Assembly (NCBI GenBank): GCA_947483555.1
Contig: CANKMW010000015.1
Coordinates: 1 to 26,424 of the forward strand
Origin: Myxococcales bacterium
Lineage (GTDB): Bacteria > Myxococcota_A > Polyangia > Haliangiales > Haliangiaceae
DNA length: 26,424 nucleotides
Reading direction: 5' to 3'
Made by a program: the position numbers and the translations under genes. Below, piece by piece: positions 1-25,535 of the stretch; position 1 is the stretch's first letter; the number at the start of each line of letters is the position of its first letter. Under the pieces are notes generated by a model. It saw nothing but the letters and a program-made list of their open reading frames with translations. It was not told the DNA's origin and did not search any database.

Positions 1-135
1 CTGCTTAACCAGGGGCTCGACTGGTACAGCGCGATCCCAAACATGAAGCCGGAGCGCCTCGAGCTGCTGATGGCGACGTTCGATGCCGGCGTCCGCCGTC
101 ACGCGGTCTTCCGCGAAATCTTCGGCGTCATATGA
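1..135 (+). CDS. 3' end of an upstream gene running off the window edge. Frame 1 is open from position 1 to a TGA at 133-135 and reads ...LLNQGLDWYSAIPNMKPERLELLMATFDAGVRRHAVFREIFGVI*. Product unknown.
   Basis: Open frame from the window start with high GC3 codon usage typical of the neighbouring genes. No recognisable motif. It overlaps the annotated start of the cytochrome ORF in another frame. Confidence 0.4.
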   Translation: MLNQGLDWYSAIPNMKPERLELLMATFDAGVRRHAVFREIFGVI

Positions 136-2077
136 GGGGATGCCTCAGCTGCAGGGCAAGCACGGCGTGACGCCGTGCGCGAAGTGCCACACCCAGGCCA
201 ACCGGCAGGGCCTGCGCACGTTCCTGGGCGCCGAGCGCACCTGCGGCGGCTGTCACGACGATCACCCGCACGGCCGGCTGCGGTCGGCGCTGACGCGCTG
301 CGATCGCTGCCACACCGAGACCGTGTGGTCACCGCAGAAGCCCACCAAGGACTTCGATCACGACGCCAAGGGCGACGCCGCGATGGCGCTCGAAGGCAGT
401 CATGCCGACGTCGCGTGCAGCAAGTGCCATCCCAAGGCGGCGTTCAAGCTGGCCGGCTTCGATGGTCAGTGCGGGACGTGCCACGACAGCCCGCACGACG
501 GTCAGCTGTTCGGCACCAAGAAGTGCACGAGCTGCCACTCGCCGCGCCTCGGCTCGCTCGACGCGATCCAGTTCGACCACAAGAAGCAGGCCGGCTACCC
601 GCTGCTCGGCGAGCACGCTCGGCTGCCATGCGCGACGTGCCACACCCCGGCGCTCGGCAAGCGCGAGCCCACCGGCCGCTGCGAGGCCTGTCACGCCGAC
701 GACAACAAGCACGGCCCGCGCTTCGCGGCGTTCGGTGACCCGCCGCTGTGCACCACGTGTCACTCGCAGCGGGGCTGGAAGAGCGGCTTCCAGTTCAACC
801 ACGAGACCGGCGCCGGGTTCGAGCTGACCGGCAAGCACGCCGCGGTCGGCTGCCGGGCCTGCCATCGCGGCGCACGAGCGTCGGAGTTCGAGCGCTTCGA
901 CGTGAAGAAGAACGGCTGCATGAGCTGCCACCAGCACCAGCGTGCGCACGGCGGCAAGTTCACCAACGACCGCTGTCTGACCTGCCACAACGAGGCGGGC
1001 AGCAAGCGCATGCGCAGCGAGTCCCTCGAGCTGTTCCACGGCCAGGGTTCGAAGTTCCCGCTCGCCAACGCCCACGCCAAGGTCGACTGCCAGCTGTGCC
1101 ACGTCAACGACGTCTATGCCGAGACGCCTCGCGAGTGCGGGGTGTCGTGCCACGAGGACTCGCTGCACCGCGGCAGCCTGGGACCGGAGTGCTCGCGCTG
1201 CCACGAGCCGGGACAGTGGCCCGCGGTGCGCTTCGATCACGGCGCCGACACCGACTGGCGACTGGCTGGCAAGCACGCCGCGATCAAGACCTGCGACGGC
1301 TGTCACCCGAACCGGATCTACGACGGCACGCCGCGAACCTGCGGCGCGTCGGGTTGTCACCAGCGCGACGACGTCCACGCCGGCCAGCTCGGGACCCGGT
1401 GCGATACGTGTCACCGCGACGACGGCGGCCTGTTGTTCCGGCACAACCGCGACGCCCGCTTCAAGATCGACGGCGGTCACGTGGGCGTGGCGTGCGCGAG
1501 CTGTCACGCGACCCGGACCTTCAAGCCGACCCGTCGCGACTGCGTCGGCTGCCACGCCGAGCCCGCGGTGCACGCCGGCCGCTACGGCACCGCGTGCGAG
1601 CGCTGCCACTCGACCACCCGCTTCACCGACGTCTCGGCGTTGCACGACGTCGGTGACTTCTCGCTGACCGGCGCCCACGATCGGGTCGCGTGTCGCGAGT
1701 GCCACCAGCGCGGCGAGCAGCGGCGGGGCTCCGGCAACCTGTGCATCACCTGTCATCGCGACGACGACATCCACCAGAACTCGCTGTCGCCGCGCTGCGG
1801 CGAGTGCCATGGCCAGCGCGCGTTCGCGCCGGCGCGCTTCGATCATCTCGCGGTCGGCTGCAACCTGCTGGGGCAACACCGCACGTTGCCGTGCGCCGAC
1901 TGCCACCGCAGCGGCAACTTCGGCGCCGTCTCGCCGCTGTGCGTGAGTTGCCATCGCGACGACGCGGCCGCGGTCGCCGTCCCCGACCACGGCCCCCTGC
2001 TCGACTGCGGGCGCTGTCACAACCCCGACGTCTGGGTACCGGCCACCGCGCTCGGGGGGCAGAGCATATGTCGTTGA
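83..2077 (+). CDS. Multiheme c-type cytochrome with 27 heme-binding motifs, arranged as nine tandem c7-like triheme domains. Alternative start ATG at 140, directly preceded by GAGGGG.
   Basis: The translation contains 25 CXXCH motifs plus one CX3CH (CGVSCH) and one CX4CH (CGASGCH). They fall in recurring triads with spacings of about 12-13 residues. Each triad is preceded by F-x-H...G-x-H...C-x-x-CH, as in triheme cytochrome c7 (PpcA-like) domains. No N-terminal signal peptide is encoded from either candidate start. Confidence 0.88.
   Translation: MPASAVTRSSAKSSASYEGMPQLQGKHGVTPCAKCHTQANRQGLRTFLGAERTCGGCHDDHPHGRLRSALTRCDRCHTETVWSPQKPTKDFDHDAKGDAAMALEGSHADVACSKCHPKAAFKLAGFDGQCGTCHDSPHDGQLFGTKKCTSCHSPRLGSLDAIQFDHKKQAGYPLLGEHARLPCATCHTPALGKREPTGRCEACHADDNKHGPRFAAFGDPPLCTTCHSQRGWKSGFQFNHETGAGFELTGKHAAVGCRACHRGARASEFERFDVKKNGCMSCHQHQRAHGGKFTNDRCLTCHNEAGSKRMRSESLELFHGQGSKFPLANAHAKVDCQLCHVNDVYAETPRECGVSCHEDSLHRGSLGPECSRCHEPGQWPAVRFDHGADTDWRLAGKHAAIKTCDGCHPNRIYDGTPRTCGASGCHQRDDVHAGQLGTRCDTCHRDDGGLLFRHNRDARFKIDGGHVGVACASCHATRTFKPTRRDCVGCHAEPAVHAGRYGTACERCHSTTRFTDVSALHDVGDFSLTGAHDRVACRECHQRGEQRRGSGNLCITCHRDDDIHQNSLSPRCGECHGQRAFAPARFDHLAVGCNLLGQHRTLPCADCHRSGNFGAVSPLCVSCHRDDAAAVAVPDHGPLLDCGRCHNPDVWVPATALGGQSICR
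170..2050 (+). repeat. Nine tandem ~210-bp coding repeats, one triheme c7-like domain each, inside the cytochrome gene. Boundaries approximate.
   Basis: Periodic recurrence in the protein of (F/L)xH...~20...CxxCH...~12...CxxCH...~13...CxxCH modules. Divergent at DNA level but clearly modular. Confidence 0.55.
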
Positions 2078-3714
2078 GGGCCCGCCGGCCGTGGATGGCC
2101 GTGGTGGTGGTGACGACGATCGCGGCGTGGCCGTCGGCGGCACGGGCGCAGTTCGTCGATCGAACCGTGGTGGTCGACGACGACGGTGGTGACGGCGACG
2201 CCACGACCTCGGCCGCGGCCGACCCCACCGCGTCGCCGCCGGCCGGCGATCAGGCCCACGACCTCGAGGTTCGCCTGACCCTGTCGAGCTTCGTGCACCG
2301 CGAGCTCGGGTCCGACGGCCCGCCGCTGGTCGCGGGTGGTGACGCGCCCGATGACGCCAGTCCGGTGCGGCGGTTCTTCGGTGACGCGCGGCTCGAGCTC
2401 CGCGCCGACCGGGTCGGCGGCGGCAGCCTGCGCTTCGATGGTCGCATCCGCGAGACCACCAGCGAGCGCTACCAGGCCGGCGCCGGCGCCGGCGCCGAGT
2501 ACGAGCTGCGCGCTGCGTTCTACCGGCGCGCGCTGGGCGGCAGCGAGCTGCGGGTCGGGCGGCTGGTGGTCGACGCGGTCGGAGCGACCCGGCTCGACGG
2601 CGTCGCCGTCGAGCGGCGGCTGGCGGCGGCGTGGTCCGCGACGCTGTTCGGCGGCGCGTATCCGCAGCGCGGCTCGCGCTCGATCACCACCGACTACGCG
2701 GCGATCCGGGAAGCGGGCGCGGCCACCGGCGCGCCGCTGGTGCCGATCGTCGGTGGCGGCGGGCTGTCGTACCGTCGGCCGTCGCTGTACGGCGACCTCG
2801 GCGTGGGCGGCATCCACGTGCTCCAGGACGTGCCCGGTGCCGCCGGCGTCGCCGCCAGCCGCGTGTTCACGAGCGCGAGCGGTTACTGGCGGCCGGCGCC
2901 GTGGATCGACGCCTACCACTACGGCGTGCTCGAGGTCGCCGGCGCCGGCGACGTGCGCTTGACCAATGGCAGCCTCGGCGTCGACGGCTTCCCGGTGCCG
3001 GCGCTGAAGCTGGCCCTGACCGCCCATCACGTCGACACCGAGTTGCTCGAGATCAGCGCCCGCAACGTGCTCGAAGATCCGGACCCGGCGGCGATGGGCG
3101 TGGTGCAGAACGACGCCGCCGTGGTGCGGGTGTCGCAGGACCTGGCCCGGGCCGGCGTCAGCCTCGCGCTCGCGCAAGCCCGGTTCGAGCTGTCGGCCAG
3201 CGGCGGCCTGCACCGCCGTCCGGCCATCGACGTGCCACTCGCCGACGGCGGCGTGGTGGCGTTCCCGGCCGCGTCGATGGCCGAGGCCACGCTGGCGGTG
3301 CTCGACCGCCGTTCGTTCGCCGGCCTGCGGGTGGCGCTGTCGGGGAGCGCGCTGGGGCCGATCGGCGACCAGGCGCCGAGCCGGTCACGCGGCGTGGCGG
3401 CGCGGCTGGTCGTGAGTCGTGCCGGTGAGCGCGGTGATGTCGAGCTCGACCTCGTGGCCCAGCGGTTCTCCGACCTCGGGCCGCGGACCGGCTGCACGAC
3501 GCTCGATCCGCTGGCCTGTCACGGCACCGCCCGCAGCACCGCGGCGCAGGTCGGCGGGCTGCTCACCCTGCGCGCCGGGTCCGAGTGGTTGCTGCTGATC
3601 GACGGTCACCTCGGGGTCCGCGACGCCGAGTCGTCGACCGTCGGCGCGATGGTCGAGTGGCCGCGCGTGGTTTCGGTGAGCGGCTTCGCGAGACTTTCGT
3701 GGCGCTATCGGTGA
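2068..3714 (+). CDS. Secreted hypothetical protein of 548 aa with a cleavable signal peptide and pervasive amphipathic beta-strand periodicity. Putative outer-membrane beta-barrel (porin-like).
   Basis: ATG at 2068 overlaps the cytochrome stop (2075-2077). N-terminus MSLRARRPWMAVVVVTTIAAWPSAARA|QF is a classic Sec signal with an AxA site. The mature protein is rich in alternating hydrophobic/polar segments (EVRLTLSSFV, ELRAAFYRRAL, RLVVDAVGATRLDGVAVERRL, GLLTLRAGSEWLLLIDGHLGV) with many Gly/Tyr/Trp. The C-terminus ...VSVSGFARLSWRYR has alternating aromatics. The track ORF 1690-2067 upstream in the same frame overlaps the cytochrome gene and is not coding. Confidence 0.72.
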   Translation: MSLRARRPWMAVVVVTTIAAWPSAARAQFVDRTVVVDDDGGDGDATTSAAADPTASPPAGDQAHDLEVRLTLSSFVHRELGSDGPPLVAGGDAPDDASPVRRFFGDARLELRADRVGGGSLRFDGRIRETTSERYQAGAGAGAEYELRAAFYRRALGGSELRVGRLVVDAVGATRLDGVAVERRLAAAWSATLFGGAYPQRGSRSITTDYAAIREAGAATGAPLVPIVGGGGLSYRRPSLYGDLGVGGIHVLQDVPGAAGVAASRVFTSASGYWRPAPWIDAYHYGVLEVAGAGDVRLTNGSLGVDGFPVPALKLALTAHHVDTELLEISARNVLEDPDPAAMGVVQNDAAVVRVSQDLARAGVSLALAQARFELSASGGLHRRPAIDVPLADGGVVAFPAASMAEATLAVLDRRSFAGLRVALSGSALGPIGDQAPSRSRGVAARLVVSRAGERGDVELDLVAQRFSDLGPRTGCTTLDPLACHGTARSTAAQVGGLLTLRAGSEWLLLIDGHLGVRDAESSTVGAMVEWPRVVSVSGFARLSWRYR

Positions 3715-3822
3715 CGGTGTACGCGGGCTGCGCAGCCGTTCCGGGACCTGCACATCGGCGCGGCGCAGGTAGGCGGAACTCCGTGATCGCCGCGCGGCAT
3801 CACGCTTGCTGGAATCTTCCAG

Positions 3823-6800
3823 GTGGCCTGGACGCGCTCTCTCCTGCTCGCGCTGGCCGCGCTCGGGCTGGCGGCGTGCGATCTGGGCTCGTTCGATCCG
3901 AGCGACGGCGGCATCCCGGTCCAGGATCAGACCACCTGCGCCGCCAGCTGTCACGGCTCCGACGGCGTCGCGGCGCCGCCGCGCGATACCTCGGGCGGCA
4001 CCGATCCGGCGACGACCGGCGTCGGTGCGCACCGCGCGCACCTCGAAACCTCGTCGTGGCACAAGCGCCTGGAGTGCAGCACCTGCCATGTGGTGCCCGA
4101 GGAGATCGGTGCGGCCGGACACCTCGACACCGCGTTGCCCGCCGAGCTCACGTTCGGTGGCCTCGGCGAGAACAGCGCCTGGAGCGGCACCTCGTGCACC
4201 AGCTACTGCCACGGCGCCGCGCTCACCGGCGGCGCGACGACCGAGCCGGTGTGGATCCAGAACGCGAGCACGCCGAGCGACTGCGGCTCGTGCCACGGCG
4301 CGCCGCCGCCGGCGCCACACCCGCAGGATGGTGAGTGCGCCACCTGCCACCCGACGATGAACCCGGGCGGCGGCCTCGAGATCGCGTACCCGGAGTTGCA
4401 CATCGATGGCCACCTCGACGTCGTCAACGCCGCCGCCTGCGATAGCTGCCACGGCGCGGCCGGCGATCCGGCGCCACCGCGCGACACCACCGGCGGCACG
4501 GCGACCGCGGCGCGCGGCGTCGGCGCCCACCAGGTCCACCTCGGTAGCTCGTCGTGGCACGCGCAGCTCGATTGCACGCAGTGTCACCGCGTGCCGGCGG
4601 GCATCTCGGATCTCGGCCACATCGACACGCCGCTGCCGGCCGAGATCTCGTTCGGCACGCTGGCCGGGAACGGAACCTGGAACGGCACCTCGTGCGCCGG
4701 CTCGTACTGCCACGGCGCGACCTTGACCGGCGGCAACCGGCGCACGCCGGAGTGGACGCGCGTCGACGGCAGCCAGAGCCAGTGCAGCTCGTGCCACGGC
4801 GCGCCGCCGCCGCCGCCGCACCCGACCAACAACAACTGCGGCACCTGTCACCAGACCATGGCGCCGGGCGGCGGCATGGTGATCGCGTACCCGGCGCTGC
4901 ACATCGACGGCAACGTCGACGTGATCGGCGGCCAGGCCTGCGACGCCTGCCACGGCGCCGCCGGCAACCCGGCGCCGCCGCGCGACACCACCGGTGGCAC
5001 CTCGACCACGCTGCGCACCGTCGGTGCCCACCGCCGCCACCTCGACGCCTCGACGTGGCGCAAGGACCTCGCCTGCGTCGAGTGCCACCGCGTGCCGGGC
5101 GCGACCGCCTCGATCGGCCACCTGGACACGCCGGCGCCCGCCGAGATCACGTTCGGCGCGCTGGCCGGCACCGCGAGCTGGAACGGCAACAGCTGCGCCA
5201 ACACCTACTGCCATGGCGCCACCCTGGCCGGCGGCACGGCGGTGAATCCGGTGTGGACCCAGGTCGACGGCGCGCAGGGGCAGTGCGGCTCGTGTCACGG
5301 CACCCCGCCGCCGCCGCCCCACCCGGTCGACCCCGACTGCGGCGCCTGCCACGCGACGATGACCGCCGGTCTGGGCCTGGTGATCACCGATCCGGCCCGC
5401 CACATCGACGGCAACCTCGACGTCACCGGCGATCAGGCCTGCGATGCGTGCCACGGCTCGGGCGGCGTCGCCGCGCCGCCGCGCGACAACGCCGGCAACA
5501 CCGCGACCACCGCGCGCGGCGTCGGCGCGCACCGCGCCCATCTCGGCGCCGGCGCCTGGTCGGCGACCATCGCCTGCACCGATTGCCATCGCGTCCCCGG
5601 GGCGGTCAGCGCGGTCGGCCACGTCGACACGCCGCTGCCAGCCGAGGTCCGGTTCAGCGCCCGCGCCGGGACCGCGACCCAGTGGAACGGATCGCGCTGC
5701 TCCAACAACTACTGCCACGGCGCCACGCTCGGCGGCGGCACCACCACGGCGCCGATCTGGAACCAGGTCGGCAGCGGCCAGGCGGCGTGCGGATCGTGCC
5801 ACGGCCGGCCGCCGCCGCCGCCGCATCCGGCGCAGGGCGATTGCGGGACGTGTCACGACACCATGACGCCCGGCAACAACACGACGATCACCGCGCCAGC
5901 CCGCCACATCGACGGCAACCTCGACGTCACCACCAACCAGGCCTGCGACGCGTGTCATGGCTCCGGCGGCGTGTCGGCCCCACCCGACGACACCGCCGGC
6001 AACAACAGCACCGCCGCGCGCGGCGTCGGCGCGCACCGGGCGCATCTCGGCACCTCGACGTGGCACCAGCAGGTCACCTGTACGCAGTGTCATCGGGTGC
6101 CGACCGGCGTGACCTCGGTCGGCCACACCGACACGCCGCTGCCCGCCGAGCTCACGTTCAGCGCGCTGGCCGCGGGCACGACCTGGAACGGGACCACCTG
6201 CGGCACCAGCTACTGCCACGGCGCGACGCTGGCCGCCGGTGGCACCGCGACGGCGCCGCTGTGGACGCGGGTCGATGGCACCCAGGCCGCCTGCACCGCC
6301 TGCCACGGCGCGCCACCGCCGCCGCCGCACCCGAACGATAGCAACTGCCAGGGCTGCCACGCCCCGGTCGCCGGGCCGGGCCTGACCATCGCCACCCCGG
6401 CGCTGCACATCGACGGCACGCTGCAGGTGACCAGCATCCACTCGGCGGGTTGGGCGCAGCCGACCCAGCACGGCACCGCGTTCAACGCGCAGGGACCGTC
6501 GAGCTGCGCCACCGCCAGCTGTCACGGCGTCGCGCTCACCGGCGGGGCCTCGAACGTGTCGTGCAACGGTTGCCACACCGGCTGGCAGACCACCTGCGTC
6601 TTCTGCCACGGCGGGACGGACAACGCGACCGGGGCGCCGCCCGAGAGCGTGGCCGGCCTCACCGCCGTCGCCGATCGTCACGTCGGGGGCCACACCGCGC
6701 ACGTCGCCGCCTCGACGACCCACGCCGCCTACGCCTGCAGCGCCTGTCACGTCACGCCGTCGAACGCGCTGAGCGCCGGCCACGTCGACGGCGTCGCCAA

Positions 6801-7197
6801 CGCCGAGGTGCGCTACTCGACGATGAACGCCGCCGCTACCTACAACGTGACCACCGCCGGCTGCGCCACGCTCTACTGCCACGGCAACGGCCGCACCAGC
6901 GGTGGCCTCGCGACCTGGACCTCGACCACCAACCTCGGCTGCGCCTCGTGTCACAACGATGGCGGCAATCCGCAGCTCATGTCCGGCGATCACAAGAAGC
7001 ACATCGCCGACGAGAACATGGCCTGCACCGAGTGCCACCAGACCGTGGTCAACGCCGCCGCGCAGATCATCGCCCCCGCCCTGCACGTCAACGGCCTCAA
7101 GGAAGTGAGGATGGCGGTCGGCGGCACCTGGAACCCGGCCAATCGCTCGTGCTCGGGCCTCCCCGGCGGCGCCTGCCACGGCACCAAGACCTGGTGA
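3823..7197 (+). CDS. Giant multiheme c-type cytochrome lipoprotein of 1124 aa with ~32 heme motifs. Five tandem ~167-aa modules carry paired CX4CH...CXXCH motifs of the Geobacter type (TIGR01904-like), followed by a distinct C-terminal domain with ~7 hemes.
   Basis: GTG start. The lipoprotein signal MAWTRSLLLALAALGLAAC has the lipobox L-A-A-C. Each module repeats CxxCH, CxxCH, CX4CH (CAGSYCH, CANTYCH, CSNNYCH, CGTSYCH; CX3CH CTSYCH in module 1), CxxCH, PPPPPHP, CxxCH. The C-terminal part adds CATASCH, CNGCH, CVFCH, CSACH, CATLYCH, CASCH and CTECH. The opposite-strand ORF 3385-7977 is Ala/Gly/Arg-rich junk. Confidence 0.9.
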   Translation: MAWTRSLLLALAALGLAACDLGSFDPSDGGIPVQDQTTCAASCHGSDGVAAPPRDTSGGTDPATTGVGAHRAHLETSSWHKRLECSTCHVVPEEIGAAGHLDTALPAELTFGGLGENSAWSGTSCTSYCHGAALTGGATTEPVWIQNASTPSDCGSCHGAPPPAPHPQDGECATCHPTMNPGGGLEIAYPELHIDGHLDVVNAAACDSCHGAAGDPAPPRDTTGGTATAARGVGAHQVHLGSSSWHAQLDCTQCHRVPAGISDLGHIDTPLPAEISFGTLAGNGTWNGTSCAGSYCHGATLTGGNRRTPEWTRVDGSQSQCSSCHGAPPPPPHPTNNNCGTCHQTMAPGGGMVIAYPALHIDGNVDVIGGQACDACHGAAGNPAPPRDTTGGTSTTLRTVGAHRRHLDASTWRKDLACVECHRVPGATASIGHLDTPAPAEITFGALAGTASWNGNSCANTYCHGATLAGGTAVNPVWTQVDGAQGQCGSCHGTPPPPPHPVDPDCGACHATMTAGLGLVITDPARHIDGNLDVTGDQACDACHGSGGVAAPPRDNAGNTATTARGVGAHRAHLGAGAWSATIACTDCHRVPGAVSAVGHVDTPLPAEVRFSARAGTATQWNGSRCSNNYCHGATLGGGTTTAPIWNQVGSGQAACGSCHGRPPPPPHPAQGDCGTCHDTMTPGNNTTITAPARHIDGNLDVTTNQACDACHGSGGVSAPPDDTAGNNSTAARGVGAHRAHLGTSTWHQQVTCTQCHRVPTGVTSVGHTDTPLPAELTFSALAAGTTWNGTTCGTSYCHGATLAAGGTATAPLWTRVDGTQAACTACHGAPPPPPHPNDSNCQGCHAPVAGPGLTIATPALHIDGTLQVTSIHSAGWAQPTQHGTAFNAQGPSSCATASCHGVALTGGASNVSCNGCHTGWQTTCVFCHGGTDNATGAPPESVAGLTAVADRHVGGHTAHVAASTTHAAYACSACHVTPSNALSAGHVDGVANAEVRYSTMNAAATYNVTTAGCATLYCHGNGRTSGGLATWTSTTNLGCASCHNDGGNPQLMSGDHKKHIADENMACTECHQTVVNAAAQIIAPALHVNGLKEVRMAVGGTWNPANRSCSGLPGGACHGTKTW
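3937..6432 (+). repeat. Five direct tandem repeats of ~501 bp (167 codons) inside the lipoprotein cytochrome gene. Each encodes a 5-heme module.
   Basis: Module starts at the conserved motif CD(A/S)CHG fall at aa 39, 206, 373, 540 and 708. That is a period of 167-168 aa, about 501 bp. Protein-level identity between units is high, so substantial DNA-level identity is expected. Confidence 0.8.
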
Positions 7198-7248
7198 TCG
7201 CGGCGGCGACCGCAACTCGGCGGGCTGCGCCGTGTCACGCTGGAGGTG

Positions 7249-8205
7249 ATGACGGGCCATGATCGCCTCCGGACGCTCACCGCCGGCGCGGTGGTCGCCG
7301 CCGCGTGCTCCGGGCCCGGCGGCGGCGGTGGCGAGCGCCTGATGGCCGAGATCCCGCCCGGGCCGCGGCCCGCGCCCGCGGCGCTGGTGGAGCCGGCCGC
7401 CGCCGGCCCGTTCTCGCCGGCGGCCTACGCGCGACACGTGCTGGCGTTGCGCGAGCGGCTCGCTGCCGCCGGTCACGGCGAGCTCAACATCCGCATCGAC
7501 GAGCCGTTCGTGGTGGTCGGTGACGATGAACCCGCCGTGCTGGCGCGGCGCGCGCAGACGGTGCGCTGGGCGGTCGAGCGGCTGGAGCGCGACTTCTTCG
7601 CGCAGCGACCGACCCGGATCCTGGACGTGTACCTGTTCTCCACCGCGGCCACCTACCAGCGCGGCGTGCGCGCGCTGACCGGCGCCGCGCCCGGCACGCC
7701 GTACGGGTTCTACTCGAGCGAGCACGACGGCCTGTTCATGAACATCGCCACCGGCGGCGGCACGCTGGTGCACGAGCTCGTGCACCCCTACGTCGAGGCC
7801 GACTTTCCCGGCGCGCCGGCGTGGCTCAACGAAGGGCTCGGCTCGCTGTTCGAGCAGAGCTCCGACGACGACGGCCACATCATCGGCCTCACCAACTGGC
7901 GCCTCGCCGGTCTCCAGCAGGCGATCCGCGCCGGCACGGTGCCCAGCTTCCGCGCGCTGACCAAGATGAGCGAGCACGCGTTCTACGTCCAGGACCGGGG
8001 CACCAACTACGCCCAGGCCCGCTACCTCCTCTACTACCTGCAGCAGGAGGGCAAGCTGGTCGACTTCTACCGCCGGTTCCGCGCCGCGCGCGCCGCCGAT
8101 CCGACCGGCTACGGCACCCTGGTCACGGCGCTCGGCGAGGCCGACATGGCGGGATTCCAGCGCCGCTGGGCGGCCTGGGTGCTGGAGCTGCGGTTCGACG
8201 ATTGA
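7249..8205 (+). CDS. Putative zinc metallopeptidase (HExxH), probable lipoprotein. Alternative GTG start at 7246.
   Basis: GGAGG sits immediately upstream. The N-terminus MTGHDRLRTLTAGAVVAAACSGPGGGGG resembles a lipoprotein signal with Cys followed by a Gly-rich linker. The motif HELVH, followed by NEGLGSLFE about 20 aa later, resembles a gluzincin HExxH...E arrangement. Confidence 0.7.
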   Translation: MTGHDRLRTLTAGAVVAAACSGPGGGGGERLMAEIPPGPRPAPAALVEPAAAGPFSPAAYARHVLALRERLAAAGHGELNIRIDEPFVVVGDDEPAVLARRAQTVRWAVERLERDFFAQRPTRILDVYLFSTAATYQRGVRALTGAAPGTPYGFYSSEHDGLFMNIATGGGTLVHELVHPYVEADFPGAPAWLNEGLGSLFEQSSDDDGHIIGLTNWRLAGLQQAIRAGTVPSFRALTKMSEHAFYVQDRGTNYAQARYLLYYLQQEGKLVDFYRRFRAARAADPTGYGTLVTALGEADMAGFQRRWAAWVLELRFDD

Positions 8206-8271
8206 CGACGCGCGCGCGGTCGGCGATCAATTGAGGACGACGACGCCCGCGCGTGGCGCGCCGGCGCTATC

Positions 8272-8766
8272 ATGAACGCCATGGCGAGCCCGCTCGTGAT
8301 CACGATCCGGACCGACGCCGGGACGTCGCACGTCACCGTGGTCGGCACGGTCGACGAACAGGCCGACCTGTCGGCGCTGGAGGCGCTGCGGGGAGCGGTC
8401 GAGCTCGACCTCGGCGGCGTCCGCCGCTTCAACTCGGTCGGCGTCCGCTACTGGATGGACGTGCTCCGTGACGTCGCCACCCGCTGCCAGCTCACCTACG
8501 TCTCCTGTTCGCGGGCGGTCGTCGAGCAGCTCAACATGATCACCGGCTTCCTGGCCAGCGGCACCGTCCGCACCTTCAGCGCGCCGATGCGCTGCGAGCC
8601 CTGCGATCGCGACCAGGACCACGTCTTCGATCGCGCCGAGGTCATCGCGCTCGACGGCCTGCCGGCGGTGCGCTGCTCGTCGTGTGGGCTGGCCCTGGAG
8701 CTCGACGATCTCGAGGACAGCTACCTGCTGTTCCTGCGCGAGCCCACCAAGGTCGGATCGATCTGA
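8272..8766 (+). CDS. STAS-domain (anti-sigma-factor-antagonist-like) protein with a C-terminal Cys-x2-Cys...Cys-x2-Cys zinc-ribbon-like extension.
   Basis: The N-terminal ~100 aa (VITIRTDAGTSHVTVVGTVDEQADLSALEALRGAVELDLGGVRRFNSVGVRYWMDVLRDV...AVVEQLNMITGF) follow the STAS/SpoIIAA pattern. The C-terminus has CEPC...CSSC. Confidence 0.65.
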   Translation: MNAMASPLVITIRTDAGTSHVTVVGTVDEQADLSALEALRGAVELDLGGVRRFNSVGVRYWMDVLRDVATRCQLTYVSCSRAVVEQLNMITGFLASGTVRTFSAPMRCEPCDRDQDHVFDRAEVIALDGLPAVRCSSCGLALELDDLEDSYLLFLREPTKVGSI

Positions 8767-9274: not shown

Positions 9275-9310
9275 CCGGGTCCGGGACCTGCCGGCGCCGC
9301 CGGCGCCCCA

Positions 9311-10225
9311 TCAGCGCTCGGCGGCGAGCACGTCGGCGAAATAGACCTGGTAGTGGCGCGGCGTATGCGGGCGCACCCACGGCACGCGGCGGTGGTGGGC
9401 GACGACGCGCCAGCGATCGCGGGCCAGGAGCGCGAGCAGGCGGTCGTCGTCACCGGTGCCGAGCGACGGGTCCGGCGTGGCGAGAATCAGGCGGCCGCGC
9501 GGTCGCAGCGCGACGGCGGCCGCCTCGAGCAGGCGTTCGGGTGCGGCGAGCAGGTCGACCAGCTCGGCGGCGACGATGGCGTCGACGCTGCGGGGCCGCA
9601 GCGGCAGCGCCTCGGCGTCGAGCACGGCGGCGGCGACCCTCGGTCCGCGTCCGGCGGCGCGCAGCGCGGCGCGCAACGACAGGTCGCCGACCACGAGGCG
9701 CTCGACGCCGGGCACGCGGGCCAGGCGTCGCGCCAGCACGCCGGCGCCGGCGCCGACCTCGACGATGGTCCGCGGCCGCGCCGGCAGGGCGGCGATGATG
9801 GCGGCGTCGACGCTGGCGTCGCCGCCGGTCGCGTCGAGGAAGCGGCGGAAGGTGGCGGCGGCGGGGCCGGCGTCGGCCATCGCCGCGGCATCGCCGGCCG
9901 GCGGCGCAGCGTCGCCTACTTCGTGGGCCACCCAGTCGTCGCCGAACGCCAGCGGTTCGGTGCGCGCGCCGGCGCGGGCGAAGGCGTCGACGACGGCCAC
10001 CGCGACGCGGGGCGCGCGCCCGCGCTCGGCGAGGGCGGCGAGCGCGGCGTCGCGGTAGCCGGCGAGGTAGTCGGCCGGCGACGGCACCACGATCGGCACC
10101 CCGCCGAGCACCGGAAAGCGGGCGCCACAGCGCCGGCACGCCACCAGCAGGGCGCGACCGGGCATCACCGCCAGGCGGCCGGCGCACGAAGCGCACGCGA
10201 TCACGTCGAGGACCCAGGCGCGCAT
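9311..10225 (-). CDS. Fusion of a Trm112-like zinc ribbon to a class I SAM-dependent methyltransferase.
   Basis: Start MRAWVLDVIACASCAGRL...CRRCGARFPVLGGVPIVV is a Trm112/YcaR-type C-x2-C...C-x2-C motif with the GIP signature. Downstream, TIVEVGAGAGVLARRLA is SAM-binding motif I. The start lies 2 nt after the stop of the upstream rluA-like gene. An alternative start is at 10246. The rest of track ORF 9311-10981 is an overlap artefact. Confidence 0.78.
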   Translation of the reverse strand: MRAWVLDVIACASCAGRLAVMPGRALLVACRRCGARFPVLGGVPIVVPSPADYLAGYRDAALAALAERGRAPRVAVAVVDAFARAGARTEPLAFGDDWVAHEVGDAAPPAGDAAAMADAGPAAATFRRFLDATGGDASVDAAIIAALPARPRTIVEVGAGAGVLARRLARVPGVERLVVGDLSLRAALRAAGRGPRVAAAVLDAEALPLRPRSVDAIVAAELVDLLAAPERLLEAAAVALRPRGRLILATPDPSLGTGDDDRLLALLARDRWRVVAHHRRVPWVRPHTPRHYQVYFADVLAAER

Positions 10226-10227
10226 GG

Positions 10228-10974
10228 TCACGCCACTGTCGCCCATTTCGCGTCGAGCCACGCTCGCAGCGCGACCAGATCCTCCGCCAGCGGCGCCTCG
10301 ACCACCAGCCTCCGCCCGTCCGGACGCGTCACCTCGAGGCCAGCGGCGTGCAGCGCCAGGCGCGCGCCCGGCGCGCCGTCGAGCATGCCGCGCAGCGTGC
10401 GCTTGCCGTACAGCGGATCGAACAGGATCGGGGCCTCGAGGCTGCGCAGGTGGACGCGGATCTGATGATGACGGCCGGTCAACGGGCGGGCCTCGAGCAG
10501 CGTGACGGTGTCGAGATCGACGATCCCTGGACTCGGCCCCGGCGCGGTCTCGCCCGGCACCGGGGCGCGCGACCACCGCGCCAGCGCGGTCATCTCGGTG
10601 ACCGACGGCTTGCCGCGCTCGCCGGCCACCGCCGGTCGGGCCTTTCCGCGCCGCGCCTCGACCACCGCGACCTCGACGGTCCGCTCGCCGGGCAGGTCGC
10701 CGGCCGCGAAGGCCAGGTAGCGCTTGTGCACGCGGCGGGCCGCGAAGGCATCGTTCAGCCAGCGGTGGGCGGCGGCCGACCGGGCCATCACCACCACCCC
10801 GGAGGTGTCCTTGTCGATGCGGTGCACCACCCACAGCGGCTCGCCGCGCGCGGCCTCGAGCCGGTGGCGCAGGGAGGTCGCCGGGTCGCCGTCGCGCTCC
10901 GGAATGACGGCGAGGCCGGCGGGCTTGGCCACCGCGATCAGCTCGTCGTCTTCGAACAGCAGCGGCGCGTTCAT
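10228..10974 (-). CDS. RluA-family pseudouridine synthase. A GTG at 11013 is an alternative start.
   Basis: Contains the catalytic signature HRIDKDTSG and the LTGRHHQIRVHL motif typical of RluA/TruC-family enzymes. The N-terminus MNAPLLFEDDELIAVAKPAGL matches the family's start. GGATAAG lies upstream of the ATG. Confidence 0.85.
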   Translation of the reverse strand: MNAPLLFEDDELIAVAKPAGLAVIPERDGDPATSLRHRLEAARGEPLWVVHRIDKDTSGVVVMARSAAAHRWLNDAFAARRVHKRYLAFAAGDLPGERTVEVAVVEARRGKARPAVAGERGKPSVTEMTALARWSRAPVPGETAPGPSPGIVDLDTVTLLEARPLTGRHHQIRVHLRSLEAPILFDPLYGKRTLRGMLDGAPGARLALHAAGLEVTRPDGRRLVVEAPLAEDLVALRAWLDAKWATVA

Positions 10975-11148
10975 GTCGCACTTATCCCACCCCGGCGCGG
11001 CGCGCGGAAGCACTCGCGTTTTGCCCCGTGCCGCGTCGCGACCGGTGCGTCGCGGGTGTTAGGATGCGATCGCATTCGGCCGGGGCATGTGCCCGCGCTC
11101 GTACCTCGAAGGGGAGGTGCCGCGGCGGGCGCGGCCCCACGAGGGATC

Positions 11149-14100
11149 ATGGCCACCAGCGACTTCGAAACCGCCGCTGCCACCGTCAAGAGTGCGCCGC
11201 ACTCGACCGCCGCCTGGGACGCGATCGAGGAGCTCGCGCGCGAGCACGAGAAACCCGACCACGTGGTCGCCCTCTACCGCGACGTGTTGCAGAAGGGCCT
11301 CGACCCGCAAGTCGTCGAGATGGTCGGCGAACGCGCCGGCGCATTCTGCGACGAATGGTTCGGCGACGACCCCAAGGTCGCCGAGGGCCTGCTGTCCAAG
11401 GTGCTCGAGCTGGCGCCGCAGTCGGAGTCGGCGCTCGGTCGCATGTCGGTGCTCCTGACCCAGAACGAGCGCTGGAACGATCTGCTCCGCCTCTACGACC
11501 GCGCGCTGACCGGCGTCAAGGACCCCGGCCGCCGCATCAAGCTGCTGCGCGAGGCGTCGCAGCTGGCCAAGGACGTCGCCAATCAACCCGAGCAGGCGAT
11601 CGCCTACCTGCAACGCCTGCTGCCGCTGACTCCGGACGACGCTCAGCTCGGACAGTCGCTCGAGCGGCTCCTCGAGCGCTACGAGCGCTGGGTCGATCTG
11701 ATCGCGCTGTGGGAGAGCCGCCTGGAGCGGCAGAGCAAGGCCGAGCGCGAGAAGAGCCGGGCCCGCATCGCGGCGTGCTGGCTCGACAACTTGCAGGACT
11801 CGGCCAAGGCGCTGGCCTCGGTGCGTCCGCTGCTGGCCGAGTCGGACGACGACAAGGAGGCGTGCACGCTGCTCGAGCGCATCATCGAGGCCGGCCACAC
11901 GCCAGCCAAGGAGCGCGAGGCGGCGCTCGACATCCTGCGCGCCCACTACGACGCGACCGCCCGGCCGCGCGAGGTGATCCGGGTCCTCGAGCGCGTGATC
12001 GAGCGCGATCCGGCGGGCAGCCAGGCGCTGCGCGAGGAGGCCGGCGCCCGGCTGGCCGAGCTCGACGACGACAGCGCGGCGATGGACCACTATGCCGCCT
12101 TGCTCGCCCTGACCCCCGACTCGTCGGTGACCCAGGAGAAGTTGCGGCAGCTGGCGCAGCGCTCGAACGGGTATGCGCGCTACGCGGCCGGGGTGGCCAC
12201 CGCCGCCGAGCACGCCATCATGCCGGCGCGCAAGGTCGAGCTGCTGTCCGAAGCCGCCCGCACCCGCCTCGATCTGCTCGACGATCCGGCGGGCGCCATC
12301 GAGCTGTACCAGCGCGCGCTCGAGCTGCCCGGTGCGGGCGAGAAGGAGCAACTGCACGTCTGCCGGCGGCTGTCGGAGCTGTACTCGCGGGTCGATCGAC
12401 CCCGCGAACGCTTCTCGATCCTCGAGCGGCTGGCGGCCCTCGAGCCGTCGGCGTCCACGCGCCGCGGCGTGATCGGCGAGGCCGCCCGCCTGGCCGAGAG
12501 CCTCGGCGAGACCGACAAGGCGCTCGGCCTGTGGCGGCAGCGCATCGATCGCGATCCCGACGACCTCGGCGCCCTCGACTCCGCCATCCTCCTGCTCGAG
12601 ACCTCGGCCCGCTGGACCGAGCTGGTGACGGCGCTCGACCAGCGCGCCGGCAAGAACGTGTCGGCGGCCCAGAAGCGCGCCGACCTCACGCGCATCGCGG
12701 TCGTGTTCCGCGATCCCGTCCGCGACGTGGAGCGCGCCATCGCCGCCTGGCAGCGGGTGCAGACCGAGTTCGGCGACGACGCCGAGACCGTCGGCGCGCT
12801 CACCGACCTGCTGGCCGAGGTGTCGCGCTGGCGCGAGCTCGCCGATCTGCTCGAGCGCACCAGCGGTCGCGATGTCGCCCGCACCACGCATCGCCTCAAC
12901 CGCCTGGGCGAAGCGCTGGCCACCCATCTCGGTGAGCCGGCCCGCGCCCTGGCCGCCTTTCGCGCCGCGCTGGCGATCGATCCGGTCAACGATCAGGCTC
13001 GGGCCGGACTGCTGACGCTGCTCGAGGTCGCCGCGTTTCGTAAGCCCGCCGCCGACGCGCTGGCGACCAGCTATCGCGAGAACCAGGACTGGGCCGGGTT
13101 CCTCAAGCTGTTGCCGGCTCGGCTCGCCGATGCCCCCGACGATCGGACGCGGCTCGCCCTCATGCGCGAGGCGGCCTACATCCAGAGCAACAACACCAAC
13201 GATCCGGCCGGCGCGCTGAACAGCCTGGCGATGGCGTTTCCGCTCGCGCCCCGCGATGGCGTGATGGAGGGCCAGATCCTCGACCTGGCCGCTCGCACCG
13301 GCAACCCCGGCGCGGCGGCGGCGTCGAGCGCCCTCGAGGCGGCGATCCGTGCGCTCGCCGACGATCCCGACGAGGCCGCGCGCATGCGCCTGGTGCGCGC
13401 CGCCTTGCTCGAGGACAGCCTGGGCGACGAAGCCGCCGCGCTCGACGAGTACGTGACCGTGTTCCGGCACGACCGCGGCAACCAGCTCGCGGCCACCGCG
13501 GTGGTCCGGCTGGCGCCCCGGCGCGGCAAGTGGGCCGACGCCGCCGCCGCGTTGCTCGGCTACGCGGCCGCCAAGGAGCGCCTCGACGAGGGGCTGTACG
13601 CCAGCTACGAGCAGGCCGGGGCCGCGGATGCCGGCGCGATCGACGCGTCGGCCGCGGCGCTCGAGCAGGTCGCGGACGCCAGCGGCCTGCCGCCGGCGGT
13701 GGCGGCGCTGGTGTGGTCGCGGATCGCGATGTGGCACCGCGGCCGGCGTGATGATGGGCGCGCCGCGGTCGCCGCGTTCCGCCGCTCGCTCGCCGCCGGC
13801 GGCGATCGAGCCGACACGTTGCGCGCGGTGGCCGAGCTGGTGCGTCCGGACGGGCCGAGCGCGGCCTTGCTCGACGTGCTGCGCCGGCTGTCCGATGCCG
13901 ATCCCCGCGATCTCGACGTGCTGGTCGAGGCCGCCGACACCGCCAGCCGGCTCGGAGACCGCGAGGCCTCGGTCACCATCCTCGGCCAGGTGCTGGGCCG
14001 GGCCACCGGCGCGTGGCGCGGCTCGGCGGCCGTGCAGTCGTCACGTCCCGCCGAGGCGGTGGTGCGCTGGGCCATCGACGGCCTGGTCGAGCTGCATCGG

Positions 14101-17100
14101 GTCGCCGGCCGGCCGCGGGTCGCGCTCGATCTGCTCACCGAGTCGGCGCGCCTGCCGTTCGACGTCGCCACCCGCCGTGATCTGCGGCTGCGCGCGGCGG
14201 CGATGGCGTCCGGAGACCTGCGCGACAACGGCGCGGCGATCGACATGTATCGCGGCGTGCTCGCCGAGAGCCCCGGCGATCTCGAGATCATCGGTCGGCT
14301 GGGCGCGCTGCTCGACGTCGAGCGTCGCCACGCCGAGCTGCTCGGCCTGCGCCACGTCCAGCTCGGGCTCGAGGTCGAGCCGGCCAGCCGCCTCGACCTG
14401 CGTCTCGACATCGCGCGGCTGGTCGGGGTCGTCGAGGAGACCGGCGGTCGCTACGAGGCCCTGATCGCCAACCTCGCCGATCAACCCGGTCACGACGCAT
14501 CGATCGATGCCGCCCACAGCTTCCTGGCCGGCAAGGGCCAGCACAAGGCGCTCGCCGACCTGCTCGAGGAGCAGTCCGGCAAGCTCGAGGCCGGCGGCGA
14601 TGTCGCCAAGGCCGCGCGCCTGTGGGCCCGCTTCGCCGTGGTCGCCGAGCGCGACTCGCGCGAGATCGATCGCGCGATCGCCGGCCATCGCCGGGTCGTC
14701 ACCCTGGCGCCGACCCAGGAGTCGTTCCGGGCCCTGGCCCGGTTGCAGCTCGATCGCGGTCAGCCGGCGGCGGCGGTGCCGTGGTTCGAGAGCCTGCTGG
14801 CCACGGTGACGGGCGCCGAGCGGCAGACGATCGTCGATCAGCTCGCCCGCGCCCACATCGCGGCCAAGCAGGACGATCGGGCCATCGCCGCGATCGAGAG
14901 CGCGCTCGACGACCGCGAGCCGGCGCTCGAGCTGCGGCTCTTGCTCGCCGAGCTGTACCGCAAGGCCGAGCAGTGGGAGCCGCTGGCTCGCCACCTCACC
15001 CGCTCGCTGTCGTGGTTCGGCGACGACAAGGGGCCCGAGCTGGCCCGCGAGGCCGCCGCGATCTACACCGACAAGCTCGGTGCGCCGGCCAAGGCCATCC
15101 CGGCGCTCGAGAAGGCGCTGGCGCTGGATCCGACCGACAAGGACATGCGAGCCCAACTCGCCGTCGGGCTGCGCGCCGCCGGCCGGCTGGTCGAAGCCCG
15201 CGCCATCCTCGCCGAGCTGATCGAGGGCTTCGGTCGCCGCCGCTCGCCGGAGCGGGCCCAGCTCCACGTCGAGCTGGCCAAGGTCGCCCATGCCGAAGGC
15301 AAGGTCGACGAGGCGCTGACCGAGATGGAGGCGGCGTCCAAGATGGACGTCAACAACGCGCGCGTCCAGCGCGAGCTCGCCGAGCTGTGTCGCGCCGCCG
15401 GACAGGTCGACAAGGCGGAGCGCACCTACCGGGCCCTGCTCCTCATCGTCCGCCGCCAGCCGCCCGGCGACGACGAGGCCGCCGTCGGTCAGAGCGAGGT
15501 GCTGTTCGAGCTGTCGCGGCTGGCCGGCTCGCATGGCGACGCCACCCAGGCCAAGGAGCTGCTCGAGAGCGCGGTCGATGCCGCGGTGCAGTCCGACGTC
15601 GAGGTCCGGCGCCTGCGCCGCAGCCTGATCGCCCACAACGAGGCCGAGACGCTCATGCGCGTGCTCGAGCTGCGCCTCGCGGCCACCAGCGAGGCCGCCA
15701 GCCAGGCCCGGCTGTACGCCGACATGGCCGACGTGCTCGATGGCTCGCTCGCGCGCTCGGCCGATGCGCTCGATGCGATCATCAAGGCCATCAACCACGC
15801 CCCGTGGCGGCTCGACCTGCACGACAAGGCCTGGCTCCTGGCCCGCAAGTCGGGCGAGACCAAGAAGCTGGTCGAGGCGGTCGAGACCGTGGTCGATCGG
15901 CTGCGTCGCAAGGACGATCCACCGCTGGTGGCGTCGCTGTTGCTGCGCGCCGGTGAGGCGCTCGAGAACGATGCCAACGACCTGCCGGCGGCCGCGGCGC
16001 TGTACCGGCGCGTCGAGATGCTCGGCGAACGCCTGGCCGAGGCGTACTACGCCCAGGCCCGAGTCGCCGGCGCGCTCGGCGACGACGAGCAGCAGGCCCG
16101 CGCGCTCGACAACATGCTCAAGCTCGCCAGCAGCGACGGCGGCGACGCCTCGCCGGCGCAGACCGACGCGCTGTACCGGCTGGCGGAGATCTTCATCGCC
16201 ACCCCGGCGCGTCGCGCCCAGGGCATCGATCTGATCGAGCGCGCCTTCGCGGCCGAGCCGCGCTGGGCCCAGGCCGGGCGCGTGCTGCGCGGCGCATCGT
16301 CGACCGATGCCAGCGACGCCCGCGTGATGACGCTCTACGAGCGGGTGGCGCGCAACGGTGGCGACAGCGAGCTGTTGCTCGACTTTCTCGACAAGCGGGC
16401 GCGGCTCGCCGACGCGACCCCGGCCCAGGTCCGCGAGGCGGTCGATCTGGCCGTCGAGATGGCCCACCACGAGCGCGCCGAAGCGCTGCTGGAGCGCGCC
16501 GTCGTGGCGGCTCGCGACTCCGCCGATGGCGTCGGGGGCGCGGTGTGGGCGGTCCTCGCGCTCACCGATCGTCGCCTCGCCGGCGGCGATCTCGCCGCCG
16601 CCCGCGAGCTGGTCTACGAGATCATCGGCGTCGCCGAGCCGGCCGAGATGGATCCGCTGATCGGGCGGGTGGCCGCCCGCGCGGCGCAGGAGCGCGCTGG
16701 CCACGGTCTGGCCGCCGAGATGTACGAGCTGCTCCGCGAGCGCGCACCGGCGGATCGCGCGGTGTGGGAGCCGCTGGTCGCCCTCTACCGCGACATGGGT
16801 GATGGTGACCGGCTGGCGAGCGTGATCTCGTCGACGCTCCCCAACCTCACCGATCCCGGCGAGCGCAACGCCCTGCGCCGTGCCCACGCCGAGTACTTGA
16901 TCGAGTCACTGAAGCGGCCGCACGACGCCGCCGACGTGCTGCGCGACGCGCTGCGCGACGATCCCGACGATCTCGGCGCCGCCGTGCTGCTGGAGAAGAC
17001 GTTGCGCGCGCTCGGTGACGACGACGGGCTGACCGAGTTCTTGTGGGCCCGCTTCGACGACGCCGTCGCTCGCAACAGCCGCGAATCGACGCTCGACGTG

Positions 17101-23335: not shown

Positions 23336-23383
23336 CGCCATTCGGGCGTTGTCAGCAGCGCCGCGGCGGGCCAAGAATGCGTC

Positions 23384-25216: not shown

Positions 25217-25232
25217 ACAATCCGGATGCAGC

Positions 25233-25258
25233 GTCGGTGAAAATCTGAATTGCCGACG
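25233..25258 (+). terminator. Short hairpin (cgtcgg-15nt-ccgacg) directly after the stop of the PA14/P-domain gene. Possible weak intrinsic terminator without a U-tract.
   Basis: A 6-bp perfect inverted repeat sits 17 nt after the TGA. No T-run follows, so the call is weak. Confidence 0.25.
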
Positions 25259-25535
25259 TCGATCCGCACGCCGGGCGAACACTTCGCGATTGAGATCGGC
25301 GCGCGCGACGAGCAAGGTGGAACTCGGACGGGTTGTCCGGGAAACGGACGATATGCGGATCGGCCCCTCAGGCAGGCGAGCACCAGCCGCCTGAGGTGAT
25401 GGTGCAGGTGGGCGGGACGGGGGAGCAGGTGGGGGCGGGCTGAGGGGCCGACAGCGGGGGGGCATGTGGGTGTTCGCCAGGGCGCCGGATGGCGTATCCT
25501 CTGGTGCGCGCATGTCCAACGAGAAAGAGAAGACC

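Follow-up and report, generated by a model that had tools for sequence, protein, structure and literature searches.

We analyzed a window of 26,424 nucleotides (nt), that is, the whole of positions 1 to 26,424 of contig CANKMW010000015.1 from a Myxococcales bacterium (GCA_947483555.1). In it, three consecutive genes encode a c7-type polymer cytochrome (g1), a predicted outer-membrane β-barrel protein (g2), and a lipoprotein multihaem cytochrome (g3). Our results suggest that these genes belong to a family of trans-outer-membrane porin-cytochrome conduits, new in sequence and carried by Kofleriaceae/Haliangiales (Myxococcota). This is a computational prediction, to which we assign a probability of roughly 0.6. 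An IS4-family insertion sequence (IS) sits in the g1 of the window, and the chances are about even that the conduit is broken in this copy and non-functional as assembled.

Nearly all work on outer-membrane electron conduits has dealt with Geobacter, Shewanella, and a small number of iron oxidisers. If a conserved version exists that is unrelated in sequence, more organisms than now listed would be able to exchange electrons with their environment, and the hosts of this family are common in soil and activated sludge. As an operational class, defined in Geobacter, an outer-membrane conduit has three parts: a multihaem cytochrome in the periplasm, a β protein integral to the outer membrane, and a lipoprotein with redox function (PMC6148476). 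The predicted components of the cluster described here would fit this three-part definition. We built the prediction on gene content, haem and cofactor motifs, a barrel prediction, conserved synteny, and the IS junction, and from these we infer the path of the electrons.

Gene calls were checked by open reading frame (ORF) listing, translation, and third-position G+C, in a window with a G+C content of ~73%. ORFs 83-2077, 2068-3714, and 3823-7197 lie consecutively on the same (+) strand, each in a frame of high third-position G+C. ORF2 starts with an ATG at 2068 and ORF1 ends with a TGA at 2075-2077, an overlap of 10 nt. The first-pass annotation had described three co-oriented, tightly packed genes with such an overlap, and the ORF coordinates and codon positions bore this out. 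A scan of the intervals between the three genes revealed no promoters or terminators.

The β component is g2 (2068-3714, + strand), which encodes 548 amino acids (aa). The N-terminus is a Sec-type signal peptide, MSLRARRPWMAVVVVTTIAAWPSAARA followed by Q (cut between ARA and Q; aa 1-27, nt 2068-2148). An AlphaFold2 model made with 56 sequences had a mean predicted local distance difference test score (pLDDT) of 81.3 and a predicted template modelling score (pTM) of 0.77. In this model, residues 1-61 are disordered and are followed by 22 strands of 9-18 residues, covering aa 62-548. The strand connections alternate between turns of 2-6 residues, on the predicted periplasmic side, and loops of 5-30 residues, on the outer side, and the secondary-structure pattern contains no helical or plug domain. 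The mean hydrophobicity difference between alternate faces of the 22 strands was 1.83, vs 1.10 ± 0.19 (maximum 1.80) in 1000 permutations. All 50 matches listed by Foldseek for the model were outer-membrane barrels. The C-termini of homologues in other clades read ...AYRF and ...AKRF.

These properties point to g2 as an integral outer-membrane protein with transmembrane β strands, which is the second component of the operational class. By standard barrel geometry, a 22-strand barrel is estimated to be ~4 nm across, backbone to backbone, and should in principle be wide enough for a c7 domain. The first-pass annotation had read the middle protein as a putative barrel with amphipathic β periodicity and with no motif that it recognised. 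The 22 modelled strands and the Foldseek barrels favor this reading over a soluble fold, the periodicity exceeded that of all 1000 permutations, and neither Pfam nor NCBIfam models matched g2, the MtrB/PioB model PF11854 included.

The barrel family is small. A word-indexed search returned 99 homologues of g2, and those with a named source all came from Kofleriaceae, Myxococcales, Myxococcota, or Deltaproteobacteria metagenome-assembled genomes (MAGs). An exhaustive profile search found only 263 representatives among 1.84 billion proteins.

Two features of g2 lie outside the strands. Between the signal peptide and the barrel, aa 28-61 (nt 2149-2250) form an acidic disordered linker with eight Asp/Glu and one Lys/Arg, and the homologue at the distant locus L021 has a run of ~25 Asp/Glu. 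This acidic periplasmic extension might dock the basic cytochrome g1 (isoelectric point 8.2). The protein contains no CxxCH or CX3-4CH motif and only two Cys, Cys476 and Cys484, which are invariant and lie in the loop between strands 19 and 20.

ORF1 encodes 25 CxxCH, one CxxxCH, and one CxxxxCH motif, 27 in all. The part that belongs to g1 (149-2077, + strand, 642 codons) is made of nine regular trihaem units of ~70 aa with three haem motifs each, and it matched Pfam Cytochrome_C7 (PF14522) in six stretches (E 2.6e-25, 88.5 bits, cutoff 24.8). Its 55 His are enough for bis-His ligation of 27 haems, and an alignment of 45 homologues shows no variation at any haem Cys or His or at the distal His. 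The C-terminus, ...SICR (window 2059-2077), carries a Cys that is likewise invariant in the 45 homologues, and the cytochromes of the distant operons described below keep it, in ESVCR or ESVCQ. Disulfides may link this Cys and those of the barrel, whether inside the barrel loop or from one subunit to another.

We compared g1 with its orthologues in 19 loci (L001-L019), which came from a locus scan of one genome per species with a 16-sequence alignment as query. In 19/19 the orthologue had ~125 additional N-terminal residues, comprising a signal peptide and a tenth trihaem domain (three CxxCH), for a total of 30 haems. The distant homologues have a signal peptide as well. The ORF1 of the window has none; it was cut from this copy at nt 148/149. 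A tblastn search of the window with the N-terminal part of the orthologues (signal peptide and domain 1) found nothing, and every haem motif expected for domains 2-10 is kept. Judged against these orthologues, ORF1 is not an intact gene; it is the 3' remnant of a 30-haem gene that was cut by an IS and, as assembled, lacks its export signal. The earlier claim of an intact 27-haem cytochrome gene is therefore corrected, because the ORF joins an IS end to a fragment of g1.

We identified nt 1-148 of the window (+ strand) as the right end of an IS4-family element because of a transposase match, an inverted repeat, and the presence of the same end beside unrelated flanks. A frame-1 ORF with coding G+C bias runs from window base 1 to a stop at 133-135 and encodes a 44-residue peptide, the last 44 codons of the transposase. 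By homology search, this peptide led to four short metagenomic ORFs and then to contigs L029-L033. It is ~90% identical to the C-terminus of a 413-aa ORF (L033:797-2038:-), which scored 231 bits on the NCBIfam model NF033591, IS4 family transposase (cutoff 152), and also matched Pfam DDE_Tnp_1. The terminal inverted repeat, GTCATATGAGGGGATGCCTCAG, occupies nt 127-148. In L029-L033, an end of ~125 nt is 90-93% identical and always stops at ...GATGCCTCAG / ...CATATGAGGGGATGCCTCAG, and the five right flanks beyond it (L029/L030, L031, L032, L033, and the window) are all different. A full copy of 1285 bp is present in L033, with an imperfect left inverted repeat that matches the right end at 16/22 positions; the left end reads CTGAG..GATCCCCTCAT.

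The ATGs at 83 and 140 are both inside the IS end, and the cytochrome sequence starts at nt 149 (LQGKHGVTPCAKCH), in agreement with homology to the g1 orthologues that begins at ~nt 143-149. The ORF1 frame has a stop codon at nt 68-70. Since the IS end supplies the in-frame ATG at nt 140, preceded by GAGGGG, the truncated cytochrome resembles a complete ORF. An ORF with 27 haem motifs that is taken from raw sequence can be chimeric, part IS end and part fragment of a gene. The junction between the IS and g1 had no second copy elsewhere in the window.

Three other assignments of the 44-codon ORF were dropped. An unrelated upstream gene and an L33-like gene (Pfam E 0.09; one JGI name) were set aside on the 413-aa transposase of L033, of which the peptide is the C-terminus. 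An IS21 end had been considered because istA and istB lie directly upstream in L028; there, an IS21-family element (istA, istB) is inserted into a copy of the same IS4 element (L028:154-2830), a case of nested insertion sequences.

The state of the cluster in the window depends on how this insertion is read. It may be a dead or dying remnant in which the IS inactivated g1, leaving g2 and g3 disused; we consider this an open bet, equally balanced either way, and it is compatible with a conduit at the level of the family. It is suggested by the IS4 end that abuts g1, by the missing signal peptide and domain 1, and by the absence from the window of genes A, B, and C, which accompany the cluster in relatives (see below). 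Moreover, the g1 product, taken from either start (83 or 140), had no record in the protein collection, where its best match was 70% identical. As assembled, the remaining g1 would have no export or periplasmic maturation because the IS removed the signal peptide. However, g1 from nt 149, g2, and g3 contain no frameshifts or stops and show strong coding G+C bias. Because g1 is otherwise intact, with all haem ligands kept, the IS event would be recent or would vary within the population, unless the assembly was joined at a repeat; the other half may lie just beyond the IS.

The third protein, g3 (3823-7197, + strand, 1124 aa), starts with a signal peptide and a lipobox, LGLAAC, whose Cys is at codon 19 (nt 3877-3879). 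It contains 32 haem motifs (24 CxxCH, two CxxxCH, and six CxxxxCH, eight of them thus of the CX3-4CH type), so that the annotated count of ~32 haems was confirmed. Five pentahaem repeats of 167 aa, 53-64% identical to each other, cover aa 36-870 (nt 3928-6432). Each has four CxxCH and one CX3-4CH, except that the first has three CxxCH and a CxxxCH in place of the four, and a C-terminal module adds seven haem motifs. The 72 His of g3 are enough for bis-His ligation of 32 haems. The lipobox and the haem motifs are conserved, and so is the mature N-terminus of the orthologues, C-D-L-G, with Asp at position +2. The search with TIGR01904 (CxxxxCH/CxxCH domain cytochromes) gave 178.8 bits for g3 (cutoff 27) in six stretches and no match for g1. 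The conduit had been annotated as built from TIGR01904-type modules, which holds for ORF3 and fails for ORF1, composed of Cytochrome_C7 units. An exact look-up of the g3 product in the protein collection found nothing, and that of the g2 product gave a single 3.6-kb contig.

The arrangement of the three genes is conserved. The 19 loci all came from Kofleriaceae, Haliangiales, Myxococcales, or Deltaproteobacteria MAGs. g1 was directly upstream of g2 in 19/19, and g3 was downstream wherever the contig reached far enough, so that homologues of the three genes are co-located in related genomes, as the first-pass annotation had expected of a conduit. Among 16 loci with a placeable g2 start, 14 have the two genes overlapping at the g1 stop, by either 4 or 10 nt. 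In two loci (L006:9550-16950 and L011:11518-18930), g2 and g3 are separated by ~7.4 kb that hold gene B and three other genes, a rearranged form of the cluster.

Relatives also revealed a natural unit larger than the three genes that had been annotated. Genes A, B, and C occur upstream of g1 in all loci that reach far enough (for example, L004:1468-7597), and they add an Fe-S/b-type membrane cytochrome, an Fe-S flavoprotein, and an SH3b protein, respectively. C is secreted and has two SH3b domains and a β-rich C-terminal half of unknown fold. B is divergently transcribed and has two domains, a ferredoxin domain with two [4Fe-4S] clusters and a pyridine-nucleotide-disulphide-oxidoreductase (FAD/NAD(P)) domain. 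A, of ~720 aa, has an N-terminal domain of unknown type, a two-cluster ferredoxin domain (two CxxCxxCxxxC), and a C-terminal membrane domain with two transmembrane helices, each with two His 14 residues apart. These two His pairs appear suited to bind two b-haems. Below the Pfam gathering thresholds, A matched DUF4405, PepSY_TM, cytochrome b561, and ferric-reductase transmembrane families. DUF4405 proteins bind haem b and were proposed as electron carriers across the cytoplasmic membrane (PMC11334425).

More distant operons (L021, L023/L024, L025, and L027) keep the order A, c7 polymer, barrel, with a barrel 28-32% identical to g2. Their c7 polymers have 778-824 aa and 29-30 haems, and the genes overlap the barrel gene by 4 or 10 nt. 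In L027, the cytochrome has the same sequence as an annotated Haliangium ochraceum protein. Of the clusters examined, L026:6029-12202 is the most distant (barrel 26% identical) and is a compact version of the same system. There, the His-pair membrane domain is fused to a 6-haem c7 cytochrome and is followed by a 9-haem c7 cytochrome, the barrel, and two more genes, which encode a small 2-haem lipoprotein-like protein and then an SH3 protein with four haems. In each of these distant loci, with barrels at 26-32% identity, the gene immediately before the barrel encodes a c7-type cytochrome, which has 9 to 30 haems. As far as gene content tells, what stays constant across the family is the barrel together with a periplasmic cytochrome of the c7 type, and a b-type membrane module lies close by. 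The outer lipoprotein varies; L021, L023/L024, L025, and L027 keep the cytochrome and the barrel and lack g3.

From the intact relatives we propose the following mechanism. The cytoplasmic Fe-S flavoprotein B would pass electrons to the membrane protein A, in which they would move from cytoplasmic [4Fe-4S] clusters to two transmembrane b-haems and from there reduce g1. g1 would be a Sec-exported rod of ten c7 trihaem domains with 30 haems and, by analogy with GSU1996 of Geobacter, could have the length needed to span the periplasm. Its far end would be held in, or threaded through, the plug-less barrel of ~22 strands made by g2, whose gene is translationally coupled to that of g1. On the other side, the 32-haem lipoprotein g3 would take the electrons to an external acceptor. 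The flow could equally run inward.

A more specific version of this mechanism seems doubtful to us, though worth stating. The six genes of the relatives would form a fixed path across the entire cell envelope that bypasses the quinone pool, from an NAD(P)H-type flavoprotein (B) through A and the 30-haem g1 to the barrel and the 32-haem surface lipoprotein. A, with its Fe-S clusters and two transmembrane b-haems, would have an arrangement like that of NOX or ferric reductases, and g1 would bridge the periplasm as a single chain. If so, the largely aerobic, predatory Haliangiales might reduce or oxidise external minerals or humics, or make extracellular reactive oxygen species.

The pairing of barrel and cytochrome also admits another function. 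The barrel may be a pore, similar to an usher or a polysaccharide exporter, that exports g1 and/or g3 into an extracellular haem matrix or filament, instead of being a permanent sheath. The best Foldseek E-values of the g2 model were to AlgE and the PapC/FimD ushers. In addition, the barrel never occurs apart from g1, with which it is translationally coupled also where g3 is absent, and the invariant C-terminal Cys of g1 could make an intermolecular link. We consider this quite unlikely as the function of the family.

The amount of haem raises a different alternative, in which the cytochromes, in the periplasm or bound to a membrane, store electrons as a capacitor or redox buffer under fluctuating oxygen and the barrel is an ordinary solute porin that is co-transcribed with them. 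The cluster holds ~60 haems, far beyond the need for spanning the outer membrane; most hosts are from soil and activated sludge, where oxic and anoxic conditions alternate (PMC11495043); and a lipoprotein with Asp at +2 could remain on the inner membrane. However, the adjacency of barrel and cytochrome and the stop/start overlap are kept down to 26% identity, even where the cytochrome has nine haems, which would be unexpected for an unrelated porin. The barrel family is, in addition, rare and was found only in this context among the loci inspected. We regard the electron store as very unlikely.

The conduit reading was also compared with known systems. In Geobacter sulfurreducens, OmaB-OmbB-OmcB (Pcc) and ExtABCD/ExtEFG/ExtHIJKL follow the same three-part logic within one gene cluster. 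The β protein of Geobacter conduits has 18-21 predicted strands, close to the ~22 of g2, and atypical CX3-4CH motifs in the outer cytochrome are common to Geobacter conduits and g3 (PMC6148476, PMC4245776). A conserved periplasmic part combined with a replaceable outer lipoprotein is likewise found both in Geobacter conduits and in the g1-g2 family, and the known conduits are themselves mutually non-homologous (PMC6148476). The differences lie in size and composition. Geobacter periplasmic partners have 5-15 haems (25-72 kDa) and outer cytochromes up to 12-15, whereas the corresponding numbers in the present family are 30, or 27 in the truncated window copy, for g1 and 32 for g3. Unlike the periplasmic partners of Geobacter conduits, g1 consists of c7 trihaem domains in a chain, and the barrel, unlike those of described conduits, matches no curated family (Pfam, NCBIfam). 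In relatives, an Fe-S flavoprotein and an Fe-S/b-haem membrane protein accompany the cluster, in contrast to the quinol-oxidising ImcH/CbcL-type cytochromes of Geobacter. A 2014 BLAST survey of Pcc homologues did not list Haliangium (PMC4245776), which is an indirect hint that homology to Pcc proteins such as OmbB, OmaB, and OmcB may not be detectable.

Two-gene Pcc clusters of Anaeromyxobacter, also a member of the Myxococcota, and of Ca. Kuenenia consist of a porin and a 12-14-haem periplasmic cytochrome and lack an outer cytochrome, like the operons of L021, L023, L025, and L027 (PMC4245776). Their cytochromes have 338-344 aa, compared with 778-824 aa and 29-30 haems in those four operons. 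A fused porin-cytochrome of the Cyc2 type does not apply to g2, whose barrel contains no haem motif.

The Shewanella complex MtrCAB (PDB 6R2Q) shows no sequence relation to g1-g2-g3, and its gene order also differs. On the TIGR03508 model (DmsE/MtrA decahaem family), g1 scored 33.5 bits (cutoff 192.2). The first-pass annotation had called the cluster a distinct architecture, and its unrelatedness in sequence to MtrB/PioB and to MtrA/DmsE agrees with that description. MtrB has 26 strands, and MtrA and MtrC carry 10 haems each.

Geobacter has c7-type polymers of its own, GSU1996 with 12 haems and a length of ~12 nm (PDB 3OV0) and GSU0592 and GSU2210 with 27 haems. g1 resembles them in its tandem trihaem c7 domains of ~70 aa each, and differs in that its gene overlaps a barrel gene and its product ends in an invariant Cys; to our knowledge, none of the Geobacter c7 polymers is coupled to a barrel in this way. 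The b-cytochromes of the DUF4405/MsrQ/PepSY-TM/ferric-reductase families are weakly matched by protein A of the relatives, which has two transmembrane helices with paired His. A differs from them in its additional parts, a cytoplasmic di-cluster ferredoxin domain and, at the N-terminus, a domain of unknown type.

A literature search for multihaem cytochromes in Kofleriaceae or Haliangium found no paper, and for Myxococcota it returned only general surveys. One of these, a survey of activated-sludge MAGs, merely counts multihaem proteins in the phylum (PMC11495043).

Several points weigh against a conduit. Haliangium is known as an aerobe, and a role in metal respiration is not obvious. The g1 of the window is truncated, and g3 is missing from the operons of L021, L023/L024, L025, and L027. 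Sequence searches of PDB chains returned nothing significant for g1, for g3, or for the g2 profile, and no relation to MtrB/PioB or MtrA was detectable in Pfam or NCBIfam. The Foldseek TM-scores of g2 to solved barrels were low (0.23-0.43), which leaves the secondary-structure pattern as the sole basis for the size of the lumen and for the lack of a plug. The AlphaFold2 model of g1 (45 sequences) was poor, with pLDDT 61 and pTM 0.29; its top Foldseek match was GSU1996 (PDB 3OV0), which was not significant (E 0.6), and the length of g1 is an extrapolation. No cytochrome-maturation or secretion genes were seen near the cluster. Finally, Asp at +2 is an inner-membrane retention signal in E. coli lipoproteins; the retention signal of Myxococcus is Lys at +2, and lipoproteins with Asp at +2, such as pullulanase, reach the surface through a secretion system (PMC3222651). 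For the location of g3 in Myxococcota, the conserved Asp is thus ambiguous.

Taken with these points, the barrel and synteny evidence still favors the conduit. The original annotation was right in kind, while missing both the IS that cuts g1 and the larger gene unit. The idea could be tested in a culturable organism, because a protein identical to a Haliangium ochraceum cytochrome sits in a core A-g1-g2 operon. The system would also be a natural setting in which to ask whether one polypeptide can connect the inner and outer membranes electrically, with no need for diffusing carriers.

The rest of the window contains other genes. The two just 3' of g3 (7246-8766) gave sub-threshold matches, one to Peptidase_MA_2/DUF1570 and the other to a STAS domain, and genes 3' of g3 in the window were not kept beside the cluster in the loci of relatives. 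The scans for DNA tandem repeats and tRNA genes gave none of note and none, respectively. In the region 9275-18915, a giant ORF with TPR repeats occupies 10348-18915 and encodes 2855 aa, or 2629 aa if the GTG at 11028 is the start. Its 5' part overlaps a minus-strand methyltransferase ORF (9311-10981) with a 400-aa N-terminal extension, and at ~9300-10200 third-position G+C is high in two frames, which leaves the gene boundaries there ambiguous. Toward the end of the window (22271-26408) are genes for a trypsin-like peptidase, a protein with P_proprotein and PA14 domains, and an FHA-GGDEF diguanylate cyclase, a content that is typical of myxobacterial secreted and signalling genes and unrelated to the conduit cluster.

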